Shown one piece after another: positions 25,312-35,926 of a DNA stretch of 40,554 bases (positions are counted from its first letter, which is position 1; every line of letters starts with the position of its first letter). The position numbers and the translations under genes were made by a program. Under the pieces are notes generated by a model. It searched no databases. It was not told the DNA's origin and saw only the letters and a program-made list of their open reading frames with translations. Origin of the DNA: a virus; UHGV virus genome UHGV-0200722; one strand, 5' to 3'.

Positions 25312-27654
25312 ATGACAGATATTACAGCCAATGTTGTAGTGAGCATGCCTTCGCAACTCTTCACTATGGCTCGTTCTTTTAAAGCCGTAGCCAATGGCAA
25401 AATTTATATCGGTAAAATTGACACTGACCCGGTAAATCCTGAAAACCAGATTCAGGTTTATGTGGAGAACGAAGACGGTTCTCACGTTCCTGTTTCGCAA
25501 CCAATCATCATTAACGCTGCTGGATATCCGGTATATAACGGACAGATTGCCAAATTCGTTACCGTGCAAGGCCATTCCATGGCTGTTTATGATGCGTACG
25601 GTGCTCAGCAGTTCTATTTTCCTAATGTGCTAAAGTATGATCCAGATCAGTTTAGGCAGCAGCTTGCAGTAGTTGATAGCAATGTATTGATTTCTGGTGT
25701 TCCAGCAAAAGATGTTGTAAATGCCAAAACTGGACGAGCACCAGTAGTTATGACTCGAAAAGTTACAGACCTTCTTCTTGATGGTAAGGCTGGATTGCGT
25801 AAAAACTTTGGTGCTGTAGGCGATGGTAGTCATGACGATACACAGGCATTTAATGATCTGTGGGATGCGCTTATGGATCCGACATATAAACGCCGCGCAA
25901 TAGAAACAGACGAGGTTGGTCTGCCATTTATGATACAAAAAGGCCCGGCACTTCTAATTGAAAATGGAACGTTTATTTACAATGGGCCTGGTCTCAATAT
26001 TGAAACATCAGATTCATTTGTATTTAACATATCAGGTGAGAGCAGTATTTCAACAAAGATACTTTTACCAGATGGAGTATACCTATTCGATTTCGATAAT
26101 AACCCTGTTCATGCATATCTAGGGAACATGTCAATTCATGGTGGTAAAGGTGCTGTTCGATACAAATCAAAAGAACGATCAACTAACAGCATTCACCTTT
26201 TCGAAAATCTTCGCCTGTCGAGATACAAGGAGTGTGGCATAGGGAATAATTCAATCGATATGCCGTATTTCCGAGTGAAGGGATGCATGTTATACGGGGA
26301 CCCAGCAAGCCAGACTATTGGTATTTGTGTCTCTGGTTACTCTGCTGGCGGCTTCATTGAGGACTGTGTTATCAGCGACAATAGATATAATATAAAACTG
26401 GCAGTTGGTGATAATGGCGTGGAGCGTAATGGCCCTGCAACGCCTTTCTATGTCTGCAGGAACGACATGTACCGCACGGGGCGACGAGCGCCATCAGCAT
26501 CGTATGACATATGGATTGAGCCTGGTGCTACTACCCTCAACTCTGGGAGAGGTATTCAGATAATCCAAAATAAATTTGGGCAAGAAAACCTAATCGCACC
26601 AGATACTCATGTTTTGATCGCAGATGCTGCCGCTACAGGGAGCGGGTTAAATCTCAATGGAGATCGCGCTCATATAGAAACACAGTCAGTTGGTTTTGTG
26701 TCTGGCTTACGTTTCGAGGGGAATAACGTAAACTCAGCTAATAGTGGATATATTGCCCCTTTCATTCGCTCATTTACGCCAAACCTTGGAAATAACAAAA
26801 TAAATGACCTTTATGACAATGACATGCCAGCAAGAATCATAGAGTTCGCGGGTGGCATAACCCAAAGTCAAATGACTAACCTTTCACGTACCAACGTCTT
26901 TAGTGCAGACCAATGCATTGCGCTTCAGAAGGGTGTTGAACCTAAGTTGTTATCTAACCTTAATGATGTCTTCCGGCTTGATGATCCTTTGGGGTTCTAC
27001 GTCGGGCATCCTCAAGCTCAGGTTTTACCGTCAGGTTCTCAGCAGATTGGATTTGAATTGATCTACTCTGGGCCGACGTCGACGATTGGGGTGAGTAACG
27101 CAACAAGATTATCGGTAAATAACTCATATGGAGGAATATCGGAAGCAACTGAAATCACAATGACCGCTTCTGATGGCGTGGCAGTTGCCACTGTTGTTGG
27201 CGGACTTGCTGGTAGGAAGCACTGGATTGATTTCGAGCTTAAGCGCGGGACAACAAACCCTGTTGGTTCTGTTGTTGTGGAGATAATGGATGCTTCCGGG
27301 TCAGTTCTCCAACTTCGTCGTATTATTTTAATAGATACTTTTCCACGCTGGCAGAAAGTCGCCATTCCTTATATTCCAAATGAAGACGGTAATATTGTAG
27401 TCAAATTCAGATCTAATCTTTATTCGGCTGGAACGGCAACTAACTTTATTGTCGGAAATCTCAATGTTTACAGGAATGAGGAGCGAGTCAATACAGGGCA
27501 TAACTCAGGATTGAGGATGCAATGGAATCTACAACATACCGTAAGAGGCACAAGACACGAGTGGTATGACGCGTCAGGTAATTTACGCTCCAAAAATGGG
27601 GTGCCGAGTGGGGATGCCGATGGGGTAATCATTAGCGCTAACCCAACATTGTAA
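25312..27654 (+). CDS. Tailspike protein (P22 gp9-type head-binding domain; divergent receptor-binding domain)
   Basis: First ~110 aa match the P22 gp9 N-terminal domain ([12 protein letters not shown]...[34 protein letters not shown]...VLKYDPDQ); the remaining ~670 aa are unrelated to P22 gp9. Confidence 0.9.
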
Positions 27655-28923: not shown

Positions 28924-30102
28924 ATGGCTATAAGCGACACAAAACTGCGTACTATTTATGGTAAACCATATTCGGGCCCACAAGAAGTGGCTGATGCCGA
29001 TGGCCTCAGCGTACGAATTTCACCGAAGGGGGTCATCCAGTTCCAGTACCGCTATCGCTGGCATGGCAAGCCTAATCGACTTGGGCTTGGTCGATACCCA
29101 TCCCTGTCTTTGAAGGATGCCAGACAGATCACTGCTGACTTGCGAAAGCTCTATTTCTCAGGAACGGATCCACGCACCTATTTTGAAGAGAAGGTGGAGA
29201 ACTCCATGACGGTCGCCCAGTGTCTCGACTACTGGTTCGACAACTACGTCTCTACAACTCTCAGAGAAAAGACCCAGGCACTTTACCGATCAACGGTTAT
29301 GAAGCGCATGCATGACGCCTTTCCTAATCGTCCGGCATCTTCTATCACGGTTAAGCAATGGGTTGACCTGCTTACCGAAGAAGAAAGAGATAATCCACGC
29401 CGAGCAAGGCAGGTGCTAAGTCAACTAAGATCAGCAATAAGTTGGTGCATGCGGCGTCAGTTGATAGATAGTTGCGCAATTATGAGCATCCAGCCAAGGG
29501 ACTTCGGCTCCCGCGCTGAGGTAGGGGATCGGGTACTGTCGTATCACGAACTGGCTAAGATTTGGCTTGCTATTGAAAGAAGCCGTGCGTCTACGTCAAA
29601 TAAGCTCCTTCATCAGATGCTTATGCTGTGGGGGGCGAGGCTCTCAGAGCTTAGGCTGGCAACAAAGACAGAATTTGACCTGCTGGACAACGTATGGACC
29701 GTACCGAAAGAGCATAGCAAGATGGGTAATGTTATCCGCCGTCCAATCTTCGAACAAATTAAGCCTTTTCTCGAAAAGGCCATGACAACGTACAATGATG
29801 TTATTTTCCCTGGAGAAGACATAAACAAACCGATCAGCATCGCTGCAGCCAACCGATTCGTAAATAGAATAAGGGGAGGGATGGATCTAGGTTACTGGCG
29901 AACACATGATTTCAGAAGAACGCTTGTTACACGTCTGTCCGAGATGAATGTCGAGCCTCATGTTACTGAGCGAATGCTCGGTCATGAACTTGGCGGGATA
30001 ATGTCCGTGTACAATAAACACGACTGGATAGAGGCTCAGCGCAAAGCGTATGAGCTTCACGCTGATAAATTGTTCTGGCACATCAGGAGCATTTCTGATT
30101 AA
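28924..30102 (+). CDS. int: Tyrosine integrase (P4-type, arm-binding N-terminal domain)
   Basis: 392 aa; N-terminal arm-binding-like region (VRISPKGVIQFQYRYRW); C-terminal catalytic motifs (HDFRRT, LGH, terminal Tyr). Confidence 0.9.
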   Translation: MAISDTKLRTIYGKPYSGPQEVADADGLSVRISPKGVIQFQYRYRWHGKPNRLGLGRYPSLSLKDARQITADLRKLYFSGTDPRTYFEEKVENSMTVAQCLDYWFDNYVSTTLREKTQALYRSTVMKRMHDAFPNRPASSITVKQWVDLLTEEERDNPRRARQVLSQLRSAISWCMRRQLIDSCAIMSIQPRDFGSRAEVGDRVLSYHELAKIWLAIERSRASTSNKLLHQMLMLWGARLSELRLATKTEFDLLDNVWTVPKEHSKMGNVIRRPIFEQIKPFLEKAMTTYNDVIFPGEDINKPISIAAANRFVNRIRGGMDLGYWRTHDFRRTLVTRLSEMNVEPHVTERMLGHELGGIMSVYNKHDWIEAQRKAYELHADKLFWHIRSISD

Positions 30103-30355: not shown

Positions 30356-30700
30356 TTAGTCCTTGCGTAGCTCGCTAATTCTTCTATAAGTCTCTGGTGC
30401 TTTGTTTCCGTGTATCTTCATTTCAGACTTCAACAGAGCAACAAGGGAATCCCATTCGTTGAGGATGCCTTTGAATGCCGGAACGCGCTTTGCAACCTTG
30501 TCGAATGAATCTCTGATTTCTGGAATCTGCTCAACAAGTGCAACGCATCGCCGAAAGTCTGCTGCGTCATGGGGAGCGCCGAAGTGATGACCATAGATAT
30601 TCTTTTTCAGTCCACATGCGATTGAGGCAAGAGTTGCGCTACTGATGCCGACATCGCCAGTCGATTGCCATTTCAAAACCTTCATAGCCAAATCTGACAT
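30356..30700 (-). CDS. Hypothetical early-left protein
   Basis: Start MSDLAMKVLKW... at 30700 with a GGAGA RBS; the track start at 30727 falls inside a terminator hairpin. Confidence 0.5.
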   Translation of the reverse strand: MSDLAMKVLKWQSTGDVGISSATLASIACGLKKNIYGHHFGAPHDAADFRRCVALVEQIPEIRDSFDKVAKRVPAFKGILNEWDSLVALLKSEMKIHGNKAPETYRRISELRKD

Positions 30701-30712
30701 TTCTTGTCTCCA

Positions 30713-30736
30713 ATAAAAAACCGCCATCAGGCGGTT
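30713..30736 (-). terminator. Rho-independent terminator (read on - strand)
   Basis: ACCGCC-atca-GGCGGT with TTTTTT on the - strand. Confidence 0.6.
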
Positions 30737-30800
30737 TGGTGTTCTTTCAGTTCTTCAATTCGAATATTGGTTACATTGTTTTCATATATGAATAAATAAA

Positions 30801-30980
30801 TTAGCTTTTTTCGTTGCCTTCGCGTTCTTTATTAATTTTGACAAACTCGTTTTTACCACGCTCTCCAAATGCGTCTTTAGAGTCGTTGTATCCGCAATCG
30901 CAGCACACATAATCACCAGACCATCCACGCATTGTTTTTTCTTTTGCAATATTTCCAGAACCGCATTTTGGACAAGACAT
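30801..30980 (-). CDS. Small zinc-ribbon protein
   Basis: Start MSCPKCGSGNIA... with a GGAGG RBS; two CxxC pairs (CPKC...CCDC). Confidence 0.55.
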   Translation of the reverse strand: MSCPKCGSGNIAKEKTMRGWSGDYVCCDCGYNDSKDAFGERGKNEFVKINKEREGNEKS

Positions 30981-31076
30981 ATCACTACCTCCAAAGCATG
31001 AGTGAGATGACAACGTAACATTGATTGGAGATTAACAATAGATTGCTGATGTAAAAGATATGTATAAGCTTCGCTT

Positions 31077-31709
31077 TCAAAGTGGAAGCTCTGGTAGCGG
31101 CATCCAGTGAGTTACGTCATCCAAGATATGTCCTGATAAATACGTGAAAGCTCTATATTTTTTGTAATCAATTGGATTTACAACCCAGTTCCAATATGCG
31201 GCCACGATTTCACCTTGACTAAATGCCAGTAACATTTTGGTGTCTTCCGGCATTCGATCACTACAGCTTATCCAACCACCCGGAGTTACCGGAGAGTTGC
31301 CCGATAGCTGGTTCAACTTGTAAGCCTGGCTTACAGGTTCGGCACTATGAAGCATGGCAGCGCGGCAGGCGTTCCAGCCAGCTGTTCGCCCAAGCGAGTA
31401 AACTTCAGATGGCTCAAGATAATCAATGTCATGCCCGTCCTCATCGTCGTTCTCAGGTAATGCAGCAGGTACTACTGGTACTGGAGGGGCGGCATAAACA
31501 GGAATAACGTCCGATTGATCTTTATTGCTTTCATCCGTTAAAGCCCAGAATAATTTCCCGGCCGGATGTTTGAAAATATAAGCAACTGGTTCTGCTTCCA
31601 GTGATGCCAGTGCAATTCGTGCCAGTTCCATTTGTTCGCCACGAGTAAGTCCGTTATCAAGCGGATTTTTAATGAATAATTTGATACGTTCTTTGGTTAT
31701 AGCGCTCAT
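31077..31709 (-). CDS. DUF551-type phage protein
   Basis: C-terminal W/H-rich segment (WISCSDRMPED...AAYWNW...HWMPLPELP) typical of DUF551 phage proteins; start at 31709 with an AGGAGAG RBS. Confidence 0.55.
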   Translation of the reverse strand: MSAITKERIKLFIKNPLDNGLTRGEQMELARIALASLEAEPVAYIFKHPAGKLFWALTDESNKDQSDVIPVYAAPPVPVVPAALPENDDEDGHDIDYLEPSEVYSLGRTAGWNACRAAMLHSAEPVSQAYKLNQLSGNSPVTPGGWISCSDRMPEDTKMLLAFSQGEIVAAYWNWVVNPIDYKKYRAFTYLSGHILDDVTHWMPLPELPL

Positions 31710-31710
31710 A

Positions 31711-32118
31711 TCACTCTCCTTTGATGCGAATGCCAGTAGCGCGGATTGCATCGATGACTTCAGAAACTTTGTATGCCATTACCGTTTGGTAATCATCGTG
31801 AAAATCTGTTCGATGAAGCATGCTGCTACGTTCCGGGAGCAGTATTTCCCGCGCTTTCAGTTCTGCAATGCGCTTTTTTGCTGCTTCCAGTTCATCCAGT
31901 AATTCCAGCACGGTAGCCGGATTAGCCTTGGCAACAAAATCCCGGACTTGCTTACAATCAATCTCCGCAATGGGTTGATACGATGTGTAGCCATGCTGTC
32001 TTGTATAACTACCGTGACGAATAACGAAAAAATCACCATTTATTTTTTTAGCCTGCCACTTATCTTCACCGGCTTTCTCTGCCGCTTCACGCAGTGCCTG
32101 ATAGTCAATCTTGCTCAC
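31711..32118 (-). CDS. Ead/Ea22-like protein
   Basis: GTG start at 32118 with an AGGGAG RBS; the N-terminal SKIDYQALREAAEKAG... motif is characteristic of Ead/Ea22-like proteins. Confidence 0.6.
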   Translation of the reverse strand: MSKIDYQALREAAEKAGEDKWQAKKINGDFFVIRHGSYTRQHGYTSYQPIAEIDCKQVRDFVAKANPATVLELLDELEAAKKRIAELKAREILLPERSSMLHRTDFHDDYQTVMAYKVSEVIDAIRATGIRIKGE

Positions 32119-32410
32119 TGGTTGTCTCCCTTGCTGGGCTTTCGAATGTATCAAACTCAAACAACTTAACCACGTCATCAAACAGGACATAATCGCCATC
32201 AGGATCTTCAGTCATGTCAGCGCCACAATCCTGACCGAACGAGTCACAACCATCCATATCAAGCTCGTATCGCTTCAGGTTTGCGATATTTGATAAATTC
32301 AGCGCCAGTACAGCCAGGTCATAAACCTCTTCGGCGGTATACCCTGCGCCATGCCCATACATTTCAATGCGGGATATGATTTCTTCTACCCGTTGTTTTG
32401 TGATCGTCAT
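32105..32410 (-). CDS. Hypothetical acidic protein
   Basis: 101-aa ORF in the early-left operon, overlapping its neighbours' ends. Confidence 0.5.
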   Translation of the reverse strand: MTITKQRVEEIISRIEMYGHGAGYTAEEVYDLAVLALNLSNIANLKRYELDMDGCDSFGQDCGADMTEDPDGDYVLFDDVVKLFEFDTFESPARETTSEQD

Positions 32411-32931
32411 TTTTGCTCACCTCCCTGTTCTTCCAGAAAAATACGCATAGCCTCAAGCATCTCTTCGGTGTCATACGGAGACAGCTTGTCACGCAGGATG
32501 TGTTCAATGCTGTTAATGAACTTTCGGATTGCTTTGCGTTCAATTTCAGTCAGGAAAGCATCGGTGGCTGACATATTTCCTGTTGCCTTCATGGCCTTCA
32601 AAATAACCAGAACGCCATCTTGCCCAACCAACTCGGAGATAATCTCAGTGTTGTCGCCAACAACATCACAGAATGCCTGAACAGCTTTACGAGCAAGTGC
32701 ATTCTCCGCTGCCAGCGCCGCGCACTTGGCCTCAAGGTTATCAATCGTGATTCCAGCAGAACGACACTCCCGCAACGCCGTTTCTAGTTTTGATTCAAGT
32801 TCACCGAACTTACGCACCAGATATTCAGCGTTTGTTTCGTTAACCTTTAAATCACATGGGATGCATTTACCTTTCAGAAATCCATCCATCTCAATTAGTG
32901 ACATTTGTTTCATTTCTTGCCACTCCGCCAC
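32407..32931 (-). CDS. Hypothetical coiled-coil protein
   Basis: 174-aa ORF in the early-left operon. Confidence 0.5.
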
Positions 32932-33092
32932 ATCGCATTCAGATATTTGTTTTGATTCACTGAAGGAAAAGAATTTCTCTTAAGCAATTCCTCTCTCGAT
33001 GGCATTGGCTTTACGCGTTGGCGAATAATCATTTCTGCCGGAAGAATGCTGGGATTGTATGCAAGTCCTCTCATGGTAAATTCCTCAGTCAT
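32910..33092 (-). CDS. Hypothetical small protein downstream of abc2 (possible Abc1-like; start uncertain)
   Basis: Track ORF 32910..33227 overlaps abc2 heavily; an internal start (MTEEF...) at 33092 would remove the overlap. Confidence 0.3.
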
Positions 33093-33381
33093 TACTGATA
33101 GCGCCATAGCGTGAGCGGTAATTACGCAGGCGCGGATCGATATATTCAGGGAAGTGGGTATATGTGGCTTTGCGGAATGGTCGGATTGATGTCTGGTAAA
33201 TTCGCTCGCGTTCTTCTTTCTCTGCAAGCCATATACAATGGCGAAATTCCTTTTCCTCTTTCGTTTCCTGCGGTAGCGACATTATCAGGTCGTAGTTTTT
33301 TCTGAATTTATCCAGCACCTCCGATACGGAATTGCCGGAACAGCGGCGCGGGTCATCCGCACCATACAAAGGCGCTGGCAT
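33085..33381 (-). CDS. abc2: Abc2-like anti-RecBCD protein
   Basis: 98-aa protein, the size of P22 Abc2, immediately downstream of the erf/ssb pair; identity rests on my recollection of P22 Abc2. Confidence 0.6.
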
Positions 33382-33404
33382 AATGGAATCCTTATCTTGC
33401 TACT

Positions 33405-33788
33405 TTAGAAGGGAATTGAATCGTCGTATTCAGGATGATTTTGATGATTGCTACTTTGCTGCTGTTGGCTGTTTCCTGAAGTTGCAAATCCAATCTTTGC
33501 ATTCAGTAATTCAAGAGTGATTGATTGACCATTTTGCCCCTGATAAACATCAACCCTGATGTTTTCTCCGGTAATTTCCACAATGCCACCTTCAACAAGA
33601 ACACTACGGTAGTAATCCGCTTGCGCTCCCGGCTTGGCAAATACAACGGCGCTGTAGTTTGTCCATTCTTTCTTTTTTGTCTGGCGATCGTAATACTGAA
33701 CGCCAGCACGGATGTTGAATCCGATATTTTCCCCGGCCTGAAACTCTCTTGCGGGCTTGTTTAGTCTTACAGTAATCGAATGTGCCAT
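33405..33788 (-). CDS. Single-stranded DNA-binding-like protein with C-terminal acidic DDSIPF tail
   Basis: Start MAHSITVRLNKP... overlaps the erf stop (TAATG); C-terminus ...PEYDDSIPF resembles the SSB interaction tail; Gln-rich linker. Confidence 0.65.
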   Translation of the reverse strand: MAHSITVRLNKPAREFQAGENIGFNIRAGVQYYDRQTKKKEWTNYSAVVFAKPGAQADYYRSVLVEGGIVEITGENIRVDVYQGQNGQSITLELLNAKIGFATSGNSQQQQSSNHQNHPEYDDSIPF

Positions 33789-34393
33789 TAAGCAGCCGCT
33801 CCTTCTAATTCGTCTCGTCTGATGTTGTAAACGTCCTGCGCTTTGTGCTGCTCCGGTGTGCCTTCGAGCATCTTCCACGCTTTGGCGAACGCCTGTTTAA
33901 GCTCTTCCACGGTGTTTTTCTGCATTGCTGCGTCAGTGAATGCTTTTAGAACCTGTTCAGGTGTAGGTGATGGTTTTGATTGCTTTGCTGCTGCGTTCTG
34001 CTGATGTTTATGCTCGTCGGTATCTGCATCTTTCGCATCATCAATGCCGAATAAACCATTGAGGCAATACTTGCGTGCATAAGAGCTTGTAGCTCCCGTA
34101 ACTTGTGCAGAATCCATTCCTTTCTTGCTTTCTTCCTCTCGTGCAAGAGCGGTTGCTGTATGACTGTTTTCGCCATCGGTAATAGTTGCCGTGGCTTTCA
34201 CGTAATACCGATCACCAATCAACACAACTTCATCGCTGATTGATAAAAAAAGGCCATTCAGTAACGGCTTAACGCCTTCAAGAATGTCTTCACAGCTTCT
34301 GTATTTATATTTGCCGAATGAGTTGTACTGATTCTTTGGCGCGTTCAGATTCTCCTGAATAGCTGCCAGTCTTGCGTAAAATTCTTTGCTCAT
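33788..34393 (-). CDS. erf: Erf (essential recombination function, ssDNA annealing protein)
   Basis: From MSKEFYARLA.IQE.LNAPKNQYNSFGKYKYRSCEDILEGVKPLL... the translation matches P22 Erf as recalled. The track start at 34423 lacks an RBS. Confidence 0.9.
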   Translation of the reverse strand: MSKEFYARLAAIQENLNAPKNQYNSFGKYKYRSCEDILEGVKPLLNGLFLSISDEVVLIGDRYYVKATATITDGENSHTATALAREEESKKGMDSAQVTGATSSYARKYCLNGLFGIDDAKDADTDEHKHQQNAAAKQSKPSPTPEQVLKAFTDAAMQKNTVEELKQAFAKAWKMLEGTPEQHKAQDVYNIRRDELEGAAA

Positions 34394-34403
34394 ATGATTG
34401 TTC

Positions 34404-34574
34404 TCAGAATGGACACGGCCCAAGGAAATAACGCTGATTTAATACTTCGACTCGGGACAAATTAAGGCATACCCGCATTCCTTCGCGGTCACCATTATGG
34501 CGATACCAGAGAGCTTTCTGCGTGTACATGCGTCTCTGTAACTTGCTCTCCTTCACTGTGGTTGCAAGTGACAT
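34404..34574 (-). CDS. Hypothetical 56-aa protein between kil and erf (overlaps 34495..34653 in another frame)
   Basis: Manual ORF with an AAGGAG RBS 7 nt upstream of the ATG at 34574; absent from the track (<60 aa). Confidence 0.35.
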   Translation of the reverse strand: MSLATTVKESKLQRRMYTQKALWYRHNGDREGMRVCLNLSRVEVLNQRYFLGPCPF

Positions 34575-34653
34575 GAATATCTCCTTCGTTACCGATTAAT
34601 TCTTTCATCTGACGAATGAATTCTTCGTCTGACCAGTTATCTGTAAAACTCAT
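34495..34653 (-). CDS. Hypothetical 52-aa acidic protein translationally coupled to kil (arf position)
   Basis: ATG overlaps the kil stop (ATGA); manual translation MSFTDNWSDEEFIRQMKELIGNEGDIHVTCNHSEGEQVTETHVHAESSLVSP. Confidence 0.35.
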   Translation of the reverse strand: MSFTDNWSDEEFIRQMKELIGNEGDIHVTCNHSEGEQVTETHVHAESSLVSP

Positions 34654-34802
34654 TTCCTGCGATACCACGGAAGGTTGATAGCTGATTTCATCGCTTTATT
34701 TGCTTCAAGCCACATTTTTGAATCGCCAATAAATCTGGCTATTACTGCTTTGTTCTGTGCTGCACGAAGCATCTGGTGATTGATGGCTATTTCATTGCGC
34801 AT
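34650..34802 (-). CDS. kil: Kil-like host cell-division inhibitor
   Basis: Manual 50-aa ORF with a GGAGG RBS; the AVIARFIGDSKMWLEA segment resembles lambda Kil (FTIATFIGDEKMFREA). Confidence 0.6.
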   Translation of the reverse strand: MRNEIAINHQMLRAAQNKAVIARFIGDSKMWLEANKAMKSAINLPWYRRK

Positions 34803-34921: not shown

Positions 34922-35147
34922 GGGTAACTCCTTATATTTGATTGCATAACGAAAACGCCTCGAGTGAAGCGTTATTGGTATGCATATAAAAAGGCCCTCA
35001 CACTGGAGGGAAAAGAAGATTTACAATAATCAGAACAAGTCGGCTCCTGTTTAGTTACGAGCGACATTGCTCCGTGTATTCACTCGTTGGAATGAATACA
35101 CAGTGCAGTGTTTATTCTGTTGTTTATGCCAAAAATAAAGGCCACCA

Positions 35148-35426: not shown

Positions 35427-35753
35427 TCAAATAAGTGGTTTGCTGCCTAATTTCATTTTCTGGCGACCAACACAAGTCACCCCCATTTCACTGCGTGGCT
35501 TGCTGTACCATGTGCGCTGATTCTTGCGCTCAATACGTTGCAGGTTGCTTTCAATCTGTTCGTGGTATTCAGCCAGCACCGTAAGGTCTATCGGATTCAG
35601 TGCGCTTTCTACTCGTGATTTCGGTTTGCGATTCAGCGAGAGAATAGGGCGGTTAACTGGTTTTGCGCTTACCCCAACCAACAGGGGGTTTGCTGCTTTC
35701 CATTGAGCCTGTTTCTCTGCGCGACGTTCGCGGCGGCGTGTTTGTGCATCCAT
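35427..35753 (-). CDS. N: N antiterminator (lambda-type)
   Basis: From the internal start MDAQTRRRERRAEKQAQWKAANPLLVGV... the translation matches lambda N, including the arginine-rich boxB-binding motif; a lambda nutL lies upstream. Confidence 0.9.
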   Translation of the reverse strand: MDAQTRRRERRAEKQAQWKAANPLLVGVSAKPVNRPILSLNRKPKSRVESALNPIDLTVLAEYHEQIESNLQRIERKNQRTWYSKPRSEMGVTCVGRQKMKLGSKPLI

Positions 35754-35926
35754 CTTGATTCTCCTGTCAGTTAGCTTTGGTGGTGTGGTAGGTGGGAGAC
35801 CCATTTCGACCTGCTTCGGCCGACTTCAATTCGGCAATAGTTCCGCAGGCCTCGCCGCTTTACGTGCGACATATTCCCATCCATGAACCCTTCACCACAC
35901 CCCAAAGCCTTCTGCTTTGAATGCTG

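Follow-up and report, generated by a model that had tools for sequence, protein, structure and literature searches.

The early-left operon of phage P22 carries arf, erf, abc1, abc2 and orf56 after kil and cIII, and encodes no SSB. An action of Abc2 on RecC and on the Chi response has been shown for the P22 protein, phage recombination in P22 depends on the Abc2-modified host RecBCD, and the structure of the complex of P22 Abc2 with RecBCD has reportedly been solved (PMC9836394; PDB 8B1T). In phage HK620 a small gene (hkaM) is followed by a recombinase, its cognate SSB with a ...PF tip, and Abc2 (about 94% identical to P22 Abc2), the recombinase being a RecA-like Sak4. The HK620 SSB boosts Sak4 recombineering approximately 10-fold, which needs its last six residues, and its stimulation of the recombinase was seen both in vivo and in vitro (PMC5928155). 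A survey that names this protein 'SSB-2' reports that it has no homology to bacterial SSB (PMC12315714). In phage lambda, the annealase Red-beta has a DNA-binding core at its N terminus and a small three-helix bundle at its C terminus, and is served by host SSB and the phage's own exonuclease. To bind the C-terminal peptide of SSB (...DDDIPF), Red-beta needs this bundle, its C-terminal domain (CTD) (PMC6393309). Closest in sequence to the locus described below is phage HK97 (AF069529), with the order erf, gp40, abc2 (gp39) and gp38. A Genome Research survey of 2025 gave its gp40 the name SSB-1b on the strength of AlphaFold 3 modelling (PMC12315714). Table 1 of that survey assigns 27 of 325 phages to an 'HK75' module type (anti-RecBCD+, SSB+, nuclease−, SAP+) (PMC12315714). 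In HK75 itself (gp33, gp32, gp31 and abc2), an annealase with a Rad52/22-type core and a P22-subtype CTD is followed by a canonical, PF00436-like SSB that has 18 extra residues after DDDIPF.

We compared with these systems the window UHGV-0200722, a stretch of 40,554 nucleotides from a virus genome. The genes of its recombination block are all on the minus strand, and its features are as follows.

33788..34393 (stop codon included), minus strand: erf, Erf-family single-strand annealing protein of 201 aa, start MSKEFYARL (Pfam PF04404; phrog_155)
33974..34393, minus strand: N-terminal annealing core of Erf, residues 1–140 (Pfam ERF match at residues 5–143)
33791..33973, minus strand: CTD of Erf, residues 141–201, a short linker and then a three-helix bundle of about 55 aa in the AF2 model
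33786..33790, minus strand: TAATG, in which the stop codon of erf and the start codon of the SSB gene overlap, as seen in the sequence itself
33405..33788, minus strand: divergent SSB of 127 aa (HK97 gp40, 'SSB-1b'), with an OB fold from residue 1 to about 104, a Q-rich disordered linker and an acidic tip
33408..33425, minus strand: codons of the DDSIPF C-terminal tip (the translation ends ...PEYDDSIPF)
33085..33381, minus strand: abc2, anti-RecBCD protein 2, 98 aa (PF11043; P22 Abc2; PDB 8B1T/8B1U)
32910..33074, minus strand: DUF2737 gene, 54 aa from the start MRGLAYNP (HK97 gp38, P22 orf56; PF10930)

We consider it probable (roughly 0.8) that a P22-like temperate E. coli phage has its homologous-recombination module here, and that this module belongs to the early-left (PL) operon and is of the HK97 type in sequence and of the 'HK75' type in function. 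Erf matched the Pfam ERF family with an E-value of 2.1e-44 (151.6 bits, cut-off 25) and phrog_155 with an E-value of 2e-57. Abc2 covered profile positions 1–97 of 97 in PF11043 (E=4.4e-63; 210 bits, cut-off 25), was 94% identical to P22 Abc2 and matched PDB 8B1T/8B1U with E=1.8e-57. The DUF2737 protein matched PF10930 (E=3.2e-31) from residue 7 of a longer ORF and was 75% identical to P22 orf56. Because of the Pfam E-values of these proteins a chance match is excluded. A first-pass annotation of the window had described a recombination module of Erf, an SSB-like protein and Abc2; each of its testable points held, including the Erf call and the homology search it had named as a check on Abc2, which was passed overwhelmingly. 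Its span of 32910–34393 does enclose these genes, but position 32910 is the end of DUF2737 rather than of abc2. DUF2737 itself, a fourth gene of the module, was absent from that annotation, and it follows abc2 even in divergent modules (loci L236, L237, L239 and L240). A 105-aa ORF (32910..33227) was rejected as a gene, being merely a 5′ read-through of the DUF2737 frame over the 3′ part of abc2 (33085..33227).

The module is real, had been read correctly and is already catalogued in the literature. Over ~2 kb, the block was 96.5% identical in DNA to HK97 and 98% to Sf101. HK97 has the same four genes in the same order with the same overlaps, and differs only in point changes and in 2 bases of the small-ORF region upstream of erf; the same block is found in Sf101, HK106, HK544, HK633 and mEp506. 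The virion genes of the window are P22/HK620-like rather than HK97-like, which is ordinary lambdoid mosaicism. Of 5426 complete E. coli genomes, 571 (approximately one in ten) carried a 512-bp block comprising the Erf CTD and the SSB. As a discovery the module matters little, because it is nearly identical to HK97, its SSB was recognised in 2025 and the logic of the HK620 module has been worked out experimentally. HK97 was reportedly sequenced in 2000.

Abc2, SSB and Erf are contiguous and lie downstream of N, cIII and kil (Kil was identified by Pfam PF06301), the same operon position relative to kil and cIII as in P22. A contiguous early-left cluster with an anti-RecBCD protein, an SSB and a strand-annealing protein was thus found, and no nuclease family was detected among the other early-left ORFs (30356 to 32931), as in the 'HK75' type. 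HK75 has the same functional combination, with the same small upstream gene, abc2 and DUF2737, and differs in its annealase and SSB. The module had been called self-contained in the first-pass annotation. This has to be qualified, as it has no nuclease of its own and would depend on Abc2-modified host RecBCD. No internal promoters or terminators were found within the module above shuffled expectation.

Comparison with P22 located an exchange within this operon. P22 has homologues of the Erf core, abc2 and DUF2737/orf56, with 79–86% DNA identity, whereas the gene in the arf slot differs. Erf was 75% identical to P22 Erf, the founding member of the family, over its whole length and about 93% identical over residues 1–150. 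At the DNA level, 34393..33917 (residues 1 to about 159, core included) was 79% identical to P22 erf; the homology ends at 33917, and the replaced block (33385..33916) is made up of the entire SSB gene together with the final ~43 codons of Erf. Where P22 has its own form of these codons followed by abc1, a different Erf CTD subtype and an SSB gene are thus found here. No solved structure of a close Erf relative was found; by analogy with P22 Erf, the protein would form a ring-shaped oligomer that binds and anneals ssDNA. The final A of the erf stop codon TAA (33790..33788) is also the first base of the SSB-gene ATG (33788..33786), a one-base overlap that bears out the TAATG coupling noted in the first pass, and an AAGGAG Shine–Dalgarno sequence lies within the erf 3′ end. 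Of 74 related IMG/VR loci, 73 have this one-base overlap as well. The SSB gene and abc2 are separated by a gap of 23 nt.

The SSB was not recognised by curated sequence models. Pfam PF00436 gave no match at E≤0.1 and TIGR00621 scored 16.4 bits, far under its cut-off of 53.95, and by these criteria the protein is not a member of either family. Its best PDB sequence match was nevertheless an SSB (E=0.04), and the SSB call is made because of a PHROG match (phrog_44, 'SSB', E=1.8e-28), profile–profile comparison (hhalign with E. coli SSB, E=1.6e-5) and the fold. The AF2 model showed an OB fold (pLDDT 84), namely the five-strand barrel with a helix between strands 3 and 4 of bacterial-type SSBs, with residues 108–121 disordered (pLDDT <50), and its best matches among solved structures were bacterial SSBs. 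E. coli SSB (PF00436; PDB 1EYG, 1QVC and 1EQQ) has in common with it the OB fold, four stacking aromatics, a disordered linker and an acidic DD(D/S)IPF tip, but the two are 15–20% identical and the linker here is much shorter (127 compared with 178 aa for the whole protein). In the hhalign alignment Y32, W42, F50 and Y82 were paired with W40, W54, F60 and W88 of E. coli SSB respectively, its base-stacking residues in the 1EYG structure. Among 30 homologues F50 was invariant, Y32 and W42 were conserved in at least 90% and position 82 was always tyrosine or phenylalanine. The tetramerization residue His55 of E. coli SSB aligns to an invariant threonine (Thr43), suggesting that the tetramer interface of SSB-1b may differ.

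The disordered linker and acidic D-D-x-I-P-F tip of a bacterial-type SSB are present as well. An acidic stretch followed by an (I/P/V/A)PF tip was found in 25 of the 30 homologues, two of which have a five-residue extension (NQGGR) after it, and the penultimate proline was conserved in at least 90% of the alignment; some members lack the IPF tip and keep the OB domain. The first-pass annotation had read the DDSIPF tail correctly and had named an OB-fold prediction as a check; AF2 predicted that fold with confidence. Its term 'SSB mimic' is not quite apt, and a very divergent true SSB homologue is the better description.

Beyond the gene identities, their order and coupling, the fold and tail of the SSB and the near-identity to known phages, all of them demonstrated for this module, its action may be proposed as follows, with the Sak4–SSB–Abc2 module of HK620, alike in architecture, as the experimental precedent. 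N-antiterminated transcription from PL would run through cIII, kil, the small arf-slot gene, erf, the SSB gene, abc2 and DUF2737. Abc2, judging from its 94% identity to the P22 protein, would bind the RecC subunit of host RecBCD and stop its Chi response, turning RecBCD from a destroyer of phage ends into a resecting enzyme for the phage. Translational coupling would provide SSB in a fixed ratio with Erf. Its OB fold would enable the SSB to coat the exposed strand, with the DDSIPF tip presented on the flexible Q-rich linker. As HK620 Sak4/SSB and lambda Red-beta/SSB suggest by analogy, the tip may then recruit Erf to the SSB-coated DNA, probably through the three-helix CTD, and Erf, stimulated by this contact, may anneal the coated strand to complementary ssDNA, located either at a replication fork or at a second DNA end. 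The outcome of annealing would be genome circularization, concatemer formation and mosaic recombination. Both P22 and lambda recombine efficiently without a phage SSB, so the SSB gene may be accessory.

A different role for the SSB has to be considered, namely that it is mainly a replication factor or a general ssDNA-protection factor, which supplements limiting host SSB in theta or rolling-circle replication and adjoins erf for operon convenience. Its fold and tail are indeed those of a general SSB, canonical-family phage SSBs are common and host SSB serves both replication and recombination (PMC12315714). The genomic contexts of distant SSB-1b relatives bear on this point; they were gathered singly, as a locus search by family alignment gave only near-identical E. 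coli loci. The relative lies directly after Erf in L245 and L248, directly after Sak4 in L241, and ~1 kb downstream of Erf with three genes between in L247, whereas one relative (P0101, L243) has no recognizable recombinase nearby, which speaks for a replication factor. Four of six distant relatives thus keep a recombinase beside them or close by, also where Sak4 takes the place of Erf. Together with the nearly constant one-base overlap with erf (73 of 74 loci) and the position of the gene in the early-left recombination cluster rather than in the replication (O/P-type) region, this makes a chiefly replicative role unlikely.

It is also conceivable that the SSB acts mainly on the host SSB interactome, as a decoy or competitor whose DDSIPF tip would titrate or redirect ExoI, RecJ, RecQ, RecO, PriA and others of this kind from host-SSB-coated DNA and so shield phage 3′ overhangs, with ssDNA binding secondary. 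The tip is nearly identical to the DDDIPF of E. coli SSB, many host enzymes recognize such tips, as established SSB biology shows (PMC5928155), and the short 127-aa form leaves only about 20 linker residues. However, the strict conservation of aromatics at all four stacking positions argues for selection on ssDNA binding, and the family members without an IPF tip have kept their OB domain; we regard a decoy role as improbable. That the SSB is a functional analogue of P22 Abc1, acting with Abc2 on RecBCD and not with Erf, is hardly credible: it does occupy the same slot between erf and abc2 with the same TAATG-type coupling, for which reason hkaK of HK620 was first annotated as abc1, but hkaK proved to be an SSB acting on Sak4 (PMC5928155), and Abc1 looks like a helix-turn-helix/sigma-70 region 4 protein rather than an OB-fold SSB. 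A diverged Abc1 was likewise rejected, as BLASTP against P22 Abc1 gave no alignment at E≤100.

If the SSB acts with Erf as proposed, the CTD of Erf would be the likely site of contact. Modelled as a 61-aa piece, the CTD was predicted by AF2 with a pLDDT of 91 and helices at 5–18, 22–35 and 41–59, and the predicted division of Erf into core and three-helix bundle is like that of lambda Red-beta. No sequence relation to the CTD of lambda Bet (Red-beta) was seen on alignment (hhalign probability 0.6%) and a fold search returned generic helical bundles only; the likeness is one of analogy and not of demonstrated homology. An exhaustive search of representatives revealed the same CTD family on Rad52/22, RecT and Sak4 cores, whereas a word-indexed search with the 61-aa CTD gave only 10 near-identical fragments. 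The CTD usually stands directly before an IPF-tailed SSB gene. A strict rule pairing the HK97-subtype CTD with SSB and the P22-subtype CTD with Abc1 is ruled out by HK75, L250 and L251. An SSB is not adjacent to the CTD in L250, L251 and P22, and in the first two an HK97-subtype CTD is followed by a gene for an AlpA-like protein (L250) or for a 157-aa coiled-coil-like protein (L251). The weaker statement survives that the CTD is portable and usually adjoins an IPF-tailed SSB.

The CTD of Erf looks like a partner-interaction module that has been shuffled, and an analysis of CTD shuffling was explicitly left undone by the 2025 Genome Research survey (PMC12315714). We tentatively suggest, as a possibility that we would not yet favour, that the last ~55 residues of Erf are a portable, independently folding three-helix docking domain for SSB tails, placed on at least four unrelated cores (Erf, Rad52/22-like, RecT and RecA-like Sak4), and that the coupled SSB-1b is a private DDSIPF-tailed loading platform, so that each of three parts (core, docking domain and SSB) could be exchanged on its own. 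Were this true, matched CTD and SSB cassettes could be transplanted and annealases made to work in new hosts. In recombineering, the match of the annealase to the SSB tail decides portability, and the Erf/SSB-1b pair (201 and 127 aa) is a compact candidate for such use. A match was obtained in 580 complete E. coli genomes, and in the best 5 of the 580 RefSeq calls the overlapping CDS 'hypothetical protein'; correcting this label would be an easy annotation fix.

Upstream of erf, two small reading frames were found.

34495..34653, minus strand: small gene of 52 aa in the arf slot, MSFTDNWSDEEFIRQ..., homologue of HK75 Gp33 (phrog_2123, E=9e-42)
34404..34574, minus strand: second small ORF of 56 aa, overlapping the arf-slot gene in another frame, of uncertain status (phrog_1723, E=9e-36)

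The ATG of the arf-slot gene overlaps the kil stop codon (ATGA), and the first 45 or so residues of its product match HK75 gp33. HK75 Gp33 has been reported to be a trigger of P2 OLD (bioRxiv 10.64898/2026.07.10.737580). Only in the HK97 record do two extra bases fuse the 56-aa ORF in frame to the ORF upstream of it.

We found that the early-left region carries an Erf–SSB–Abc2 cluster, so the observation of the first-pass annotation is confirmed and its interpretation as a recombination module is supported. Every gene of the region lies on the minus strand, as follows:

34650..34802, minus strand: kil (Pfam Lambda_Kil, 1.7e-20)
34495..34653, minus strand: small gene, homologue of HK75 Gp33; its ATG overlaps the kil stop
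34404..34574, minus strand: second small ORF, overlapping the preceding small gene
33788..34393, minus strand: erf, 201 aa (Pfam ERF, 2.1e-44; PHROG 155, 2e-57)
33405..33788, minus strand: SSB gene, 127 aa (PHROG 44, 1.8e-28)
33085..33381, minus strand: abc2, 98 aa (PF11043, 4.4e-63), starting 23 nt after the SSB gene
32910..33074, minus strand: DUF2737 gene, 54 aa (PF10930, 3e-31), starting 10 nt after abc2

The span 32910-34393 had been read as a three-gene module; the three named genes are present, but the span holds four, the DUF2737 gene having gone unmentioned. The Erf call is secured by the Pfam and PHROG matches, and the protein is 75% identical to P22 Erf. Homology searching likewise upheld the Abc2 call, as the protein aligned with the PF11043 family from end to end, was 94% identical to P22 Abc2 and matched the Abc2 chain of PDB 8B1T/8B1U at 1.8e-57. 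The proposed translational coupling is visible in the sequence: the erf stop and the SSB gene ATG share one base (TAATG), and the ribosome-binding site AAGGAG of the SSB gene sits within the erf 3' end. A 54-aa DUF2737 gene also lies ~10 nt after abc2 in P22 (orf56), HK97 (gp38) and HK75 (gp29), and a small homologue is found downstream of the recombination genes in four divergent modules (L236, L237, L239 and L240), of which L236, L239 and L240 have an only distantly related Abc2 and L237 has none identified. The conserved DUF2737 motif is P(M/x)P(S/T)(R/x)EEL(L/M)xR(N/C)SFPS, and the protein possibly belongs to the recombination cluster as its fifth member.

The 127-aa protein had been called an SSB mimic. 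A Pfam search gave no match, and its score against TIGR00621 'ssb' (16.4 bits) was below the cut-off of 53.95; the top match in a PDB sequence search was an SSB (E=0.04), and the PHROG 44 family that it matched is labelled 'single strand DNA binding protein'. A protein search returned 320 relatives, nearly all labelled 'hypothetical protein'; a precomputed match to the SSB domain (PF00436) was recorded for none of them. An alignment of 30 of these relatives was used as input to AlphaFold2; the model, a confident one (pLDDT 84 overall and at least 90 for 84 residues), predicts a five-strand barrel with a single helix between strands 3 and 4, then a disordered stretch (108-121) and the tip. Profile comparison with E. 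coli SSB (E=1.6e-5) aligned Tyr32, Trp42, Phe50 and Tyr82 with the base-stacking residues Trp40, Trp54, Phe60 and Trp88, and these four positions were invariant or always aromatic across the 30-member alignment, in which the equivalent of E. coli SSB His55 was an invariant threonine. The barrel and the profile match bear out the predicted OB fold, and the DDSIPF tip is indeed present, in a tail (...PEYDDSIPF) resembling that of E. coli SSB (...MDFDDDIPF). Thus the likeness to SSB stood, but 'true SSB', though a very divergent one, suits the protein better than 'mimic'. Of the 30 relatives, 25 kept an acidic stretch with (I/P/V/A)PF after it; the other five (P0100, P0103, P0112, P0117 and P0118) had long Q/P-rich linkers without an IPF tip, four of them ending in PQQ or PQR. 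In a survey of 325 lambdoid phages (Genome Research, 2025, PMC12315714), the family member HK97 gp40 was named SSB-1b, with an AlphaFold 3 fold like those of bacterial SSBs at 15% identity or less. The family has no NCBIfam or Pfam model, and some members are called SSB in IMG and PHROG-based annotations. The canonical SSBs of HK75 (gp31) and of an IMG/VR relative (L237) run 18 residues beyond ...MDFDDDIPF (APVTLPFPRHAIH[A/S]I), so that the usual partner-binding tip is internal; the extension occurs in two independent records, which makes a sequencing error unlikely.

The module is of a kind already known, and its sequence is essentially already known. Over 2.3 kb the region shares 96.5% identity with HK97 (erf, gp40, abc2/gp39 and gp38) and 98% with Shigella phage Sf101, and 261 phage records match it in all. 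Outside this region the window has virion genes like those of P22, HK620 and Sf6, together with a tailspike and an integrase; it is therefore an E. coli temperate phage or prophage, P22-like in kind, whose recombination module is of HK97 type, a mixture that is normal for mosaic lambdoid genomes. A nuclease was sought among the other early-left genes of the window and not found, and the module therefore belongs to the 'HK75' functional type (anti-RecBCD, SSB and annealase without nuclease), represented by 27 phages in the survey (PMC12315714). A 512-bp block covering the Erf C-terminus and the SSB gene was present at 80% query coverage or more in 571 of 5426 complete E. coli genomes; 580 matched the query, and in the best five of these, all RefSeq records (H34-H38), the overlapping CDS was labelled 'hypothetical protein'. 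The integrase gene (28924..30102, plus strand; phrog_1, 4e-74), on the strand opposite to the early-left genes, adjoins the tailspike gene (25312..27654, plus strand); the product resembles many P22-like tailspikes in its N-terminal, head-binding part but does not match those families in its C-terminal, receptor-binding part.

DNA homology to P22 covers erf codons 1 to ~159 and, separately, abc2 and the DUF2737 gene. The block 33385..33916, comprising the last ~43 Erf codons and the entire downstream gene, is replaced, so that abc1 follows erf in P22 whereas the SSB gene does so here. A three-helix bundle is predicted for the ~55 C-terminal residues of Erf (pLDDT 91), and this C-terminal domain (CTD) aligned cleanly with the C-termini of other recombinases: several different Erf cores, a Rad52/22-family annealase (PF04098), a RecT fragment and a Sak4/AAA_24 protein. 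In seven of the nine lineages examined, the gene directly after the HK97-subtype CTD encoded an SSB ending in an acidic-IPF tip; these SSBs fell into at least three sequence types:

SSB-1b type: window/HK97, L240, L241 and L248
E. coli-SSB-like PF00436 type: L236-L238
shorter type, 124 and 128 aa: L239 and L252 (L252 recorded as PF00436)

The idea that the CTD subtype tracks the partner gene was rejected, as HK75 has a P22-subtype CTD followed by a canonical SSB and two HK97-subtype CTDs are followed by other genes. This leaves a CTD that is portable across recombinase families and usually adjoins a tailed SSB, a pattern that fits, without proving, a role as SSB-tail docking domain. A fold search with the CTD gave non-specific matches, and no sequence link to the Red-beta CTD was detected. 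The survey mentions 'shuffling of partner interaction domains' without carrying out the analysis (PMC12315714). In a Leminorella grimontii prophage (L241/L242), a 287-aa Sak4-type (AAA_24) recombinase bears the same three-helix CTD as Erf (...VELKSAFEEAWKSLRGTEFQAKAKDVYDIRKAEMENAE), and its gene is coupled in translation to that of an SSB-1b relative with the C-terminus MDFDDDIPF; HK620 Sak4 (25.6 kDa) was described as 'core-only' (PMC5928155). The IPF-less relative P0117 (locus L245) follows a 176-aa Erf whose C-terminus differs from the three-helix domain of the window, a single-case hint that tail and CTD are lost together.

In the HK620 module, which is the experimental precedent, Sak4 is accompanied by a small gene, by its cognate SSB and by an Abc2 with 94% identity to the P22 protein; Sak4 recombineering rose about 10-fold with the SSB, whose last six residues were needed, and Sak4 bound SSB-coated DNA only when the tail was present (PMC5928155). 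[quoted passage not shown] Given its 94% identity to P22 Abc2, for which this has been shown, the window Abc2 would bind RecC and block the Chi response, leaving host RecBCD to serve as the resecting enzyme. The phage SSB, whose coupled start would keep its synthesis matched to that of Erf, would coat the single strand and hold out DDSIPF at the end of a flexible linker; on the model of HK620 and lambda, the tip may recruit Erf, which would anneal the strand to its complement. The SSB might instead work in replication generally or act as a decoy for host SSB partners, but both are less likely than recruitment of Erf because coupling to the recombinase is conserved across recombinase families, as are the DNA-stacking aromatics in the SSB family. 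Functional replacement of Abc1 is also less likely, the two proteins showing no sequence similarity. The remaining value lies in the Erf/SSB-1b pair as a candidate, in the annotation gap and, as a modest lead, in the portable CTD.

Upstream, the ORF at 35427..35804 (minus strand) contains MDAQTRRRERRAEKQAQWKAAN, the arginine-rich RNA-binding motif with which the lambda N antiterminator begins, and the module accordingly lies in a PL operon of the lambda type, subject to N antitermination; translation probably does not include the in-frame codons that the mechanical ORF list places upstream of this motif. Directly upstream of cIII are terminator-like hairpins (34954..34973 and 34995..35010). 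HK75 Gp33 is reported to be enough by itself to set off the P2 OLD defence protein (2026 preprint, bioRxiv 10.64898/2026.07.10.737580). The two small ORFs between kil and erf (34404..34668, minus strand) overlap by 80 nt in different frames; in the HK97 GenBank record, two additional bases (C and G, 6 nt apart) join them into the 83-aa gp42.1. They were split in 46 of the 47 IMG/VR loci with the segment and fused only in the locus that is the 39,732-bp HK97 genome, so that the fusion reflects either an error or variant in the HK97 record or a frameshift in use.
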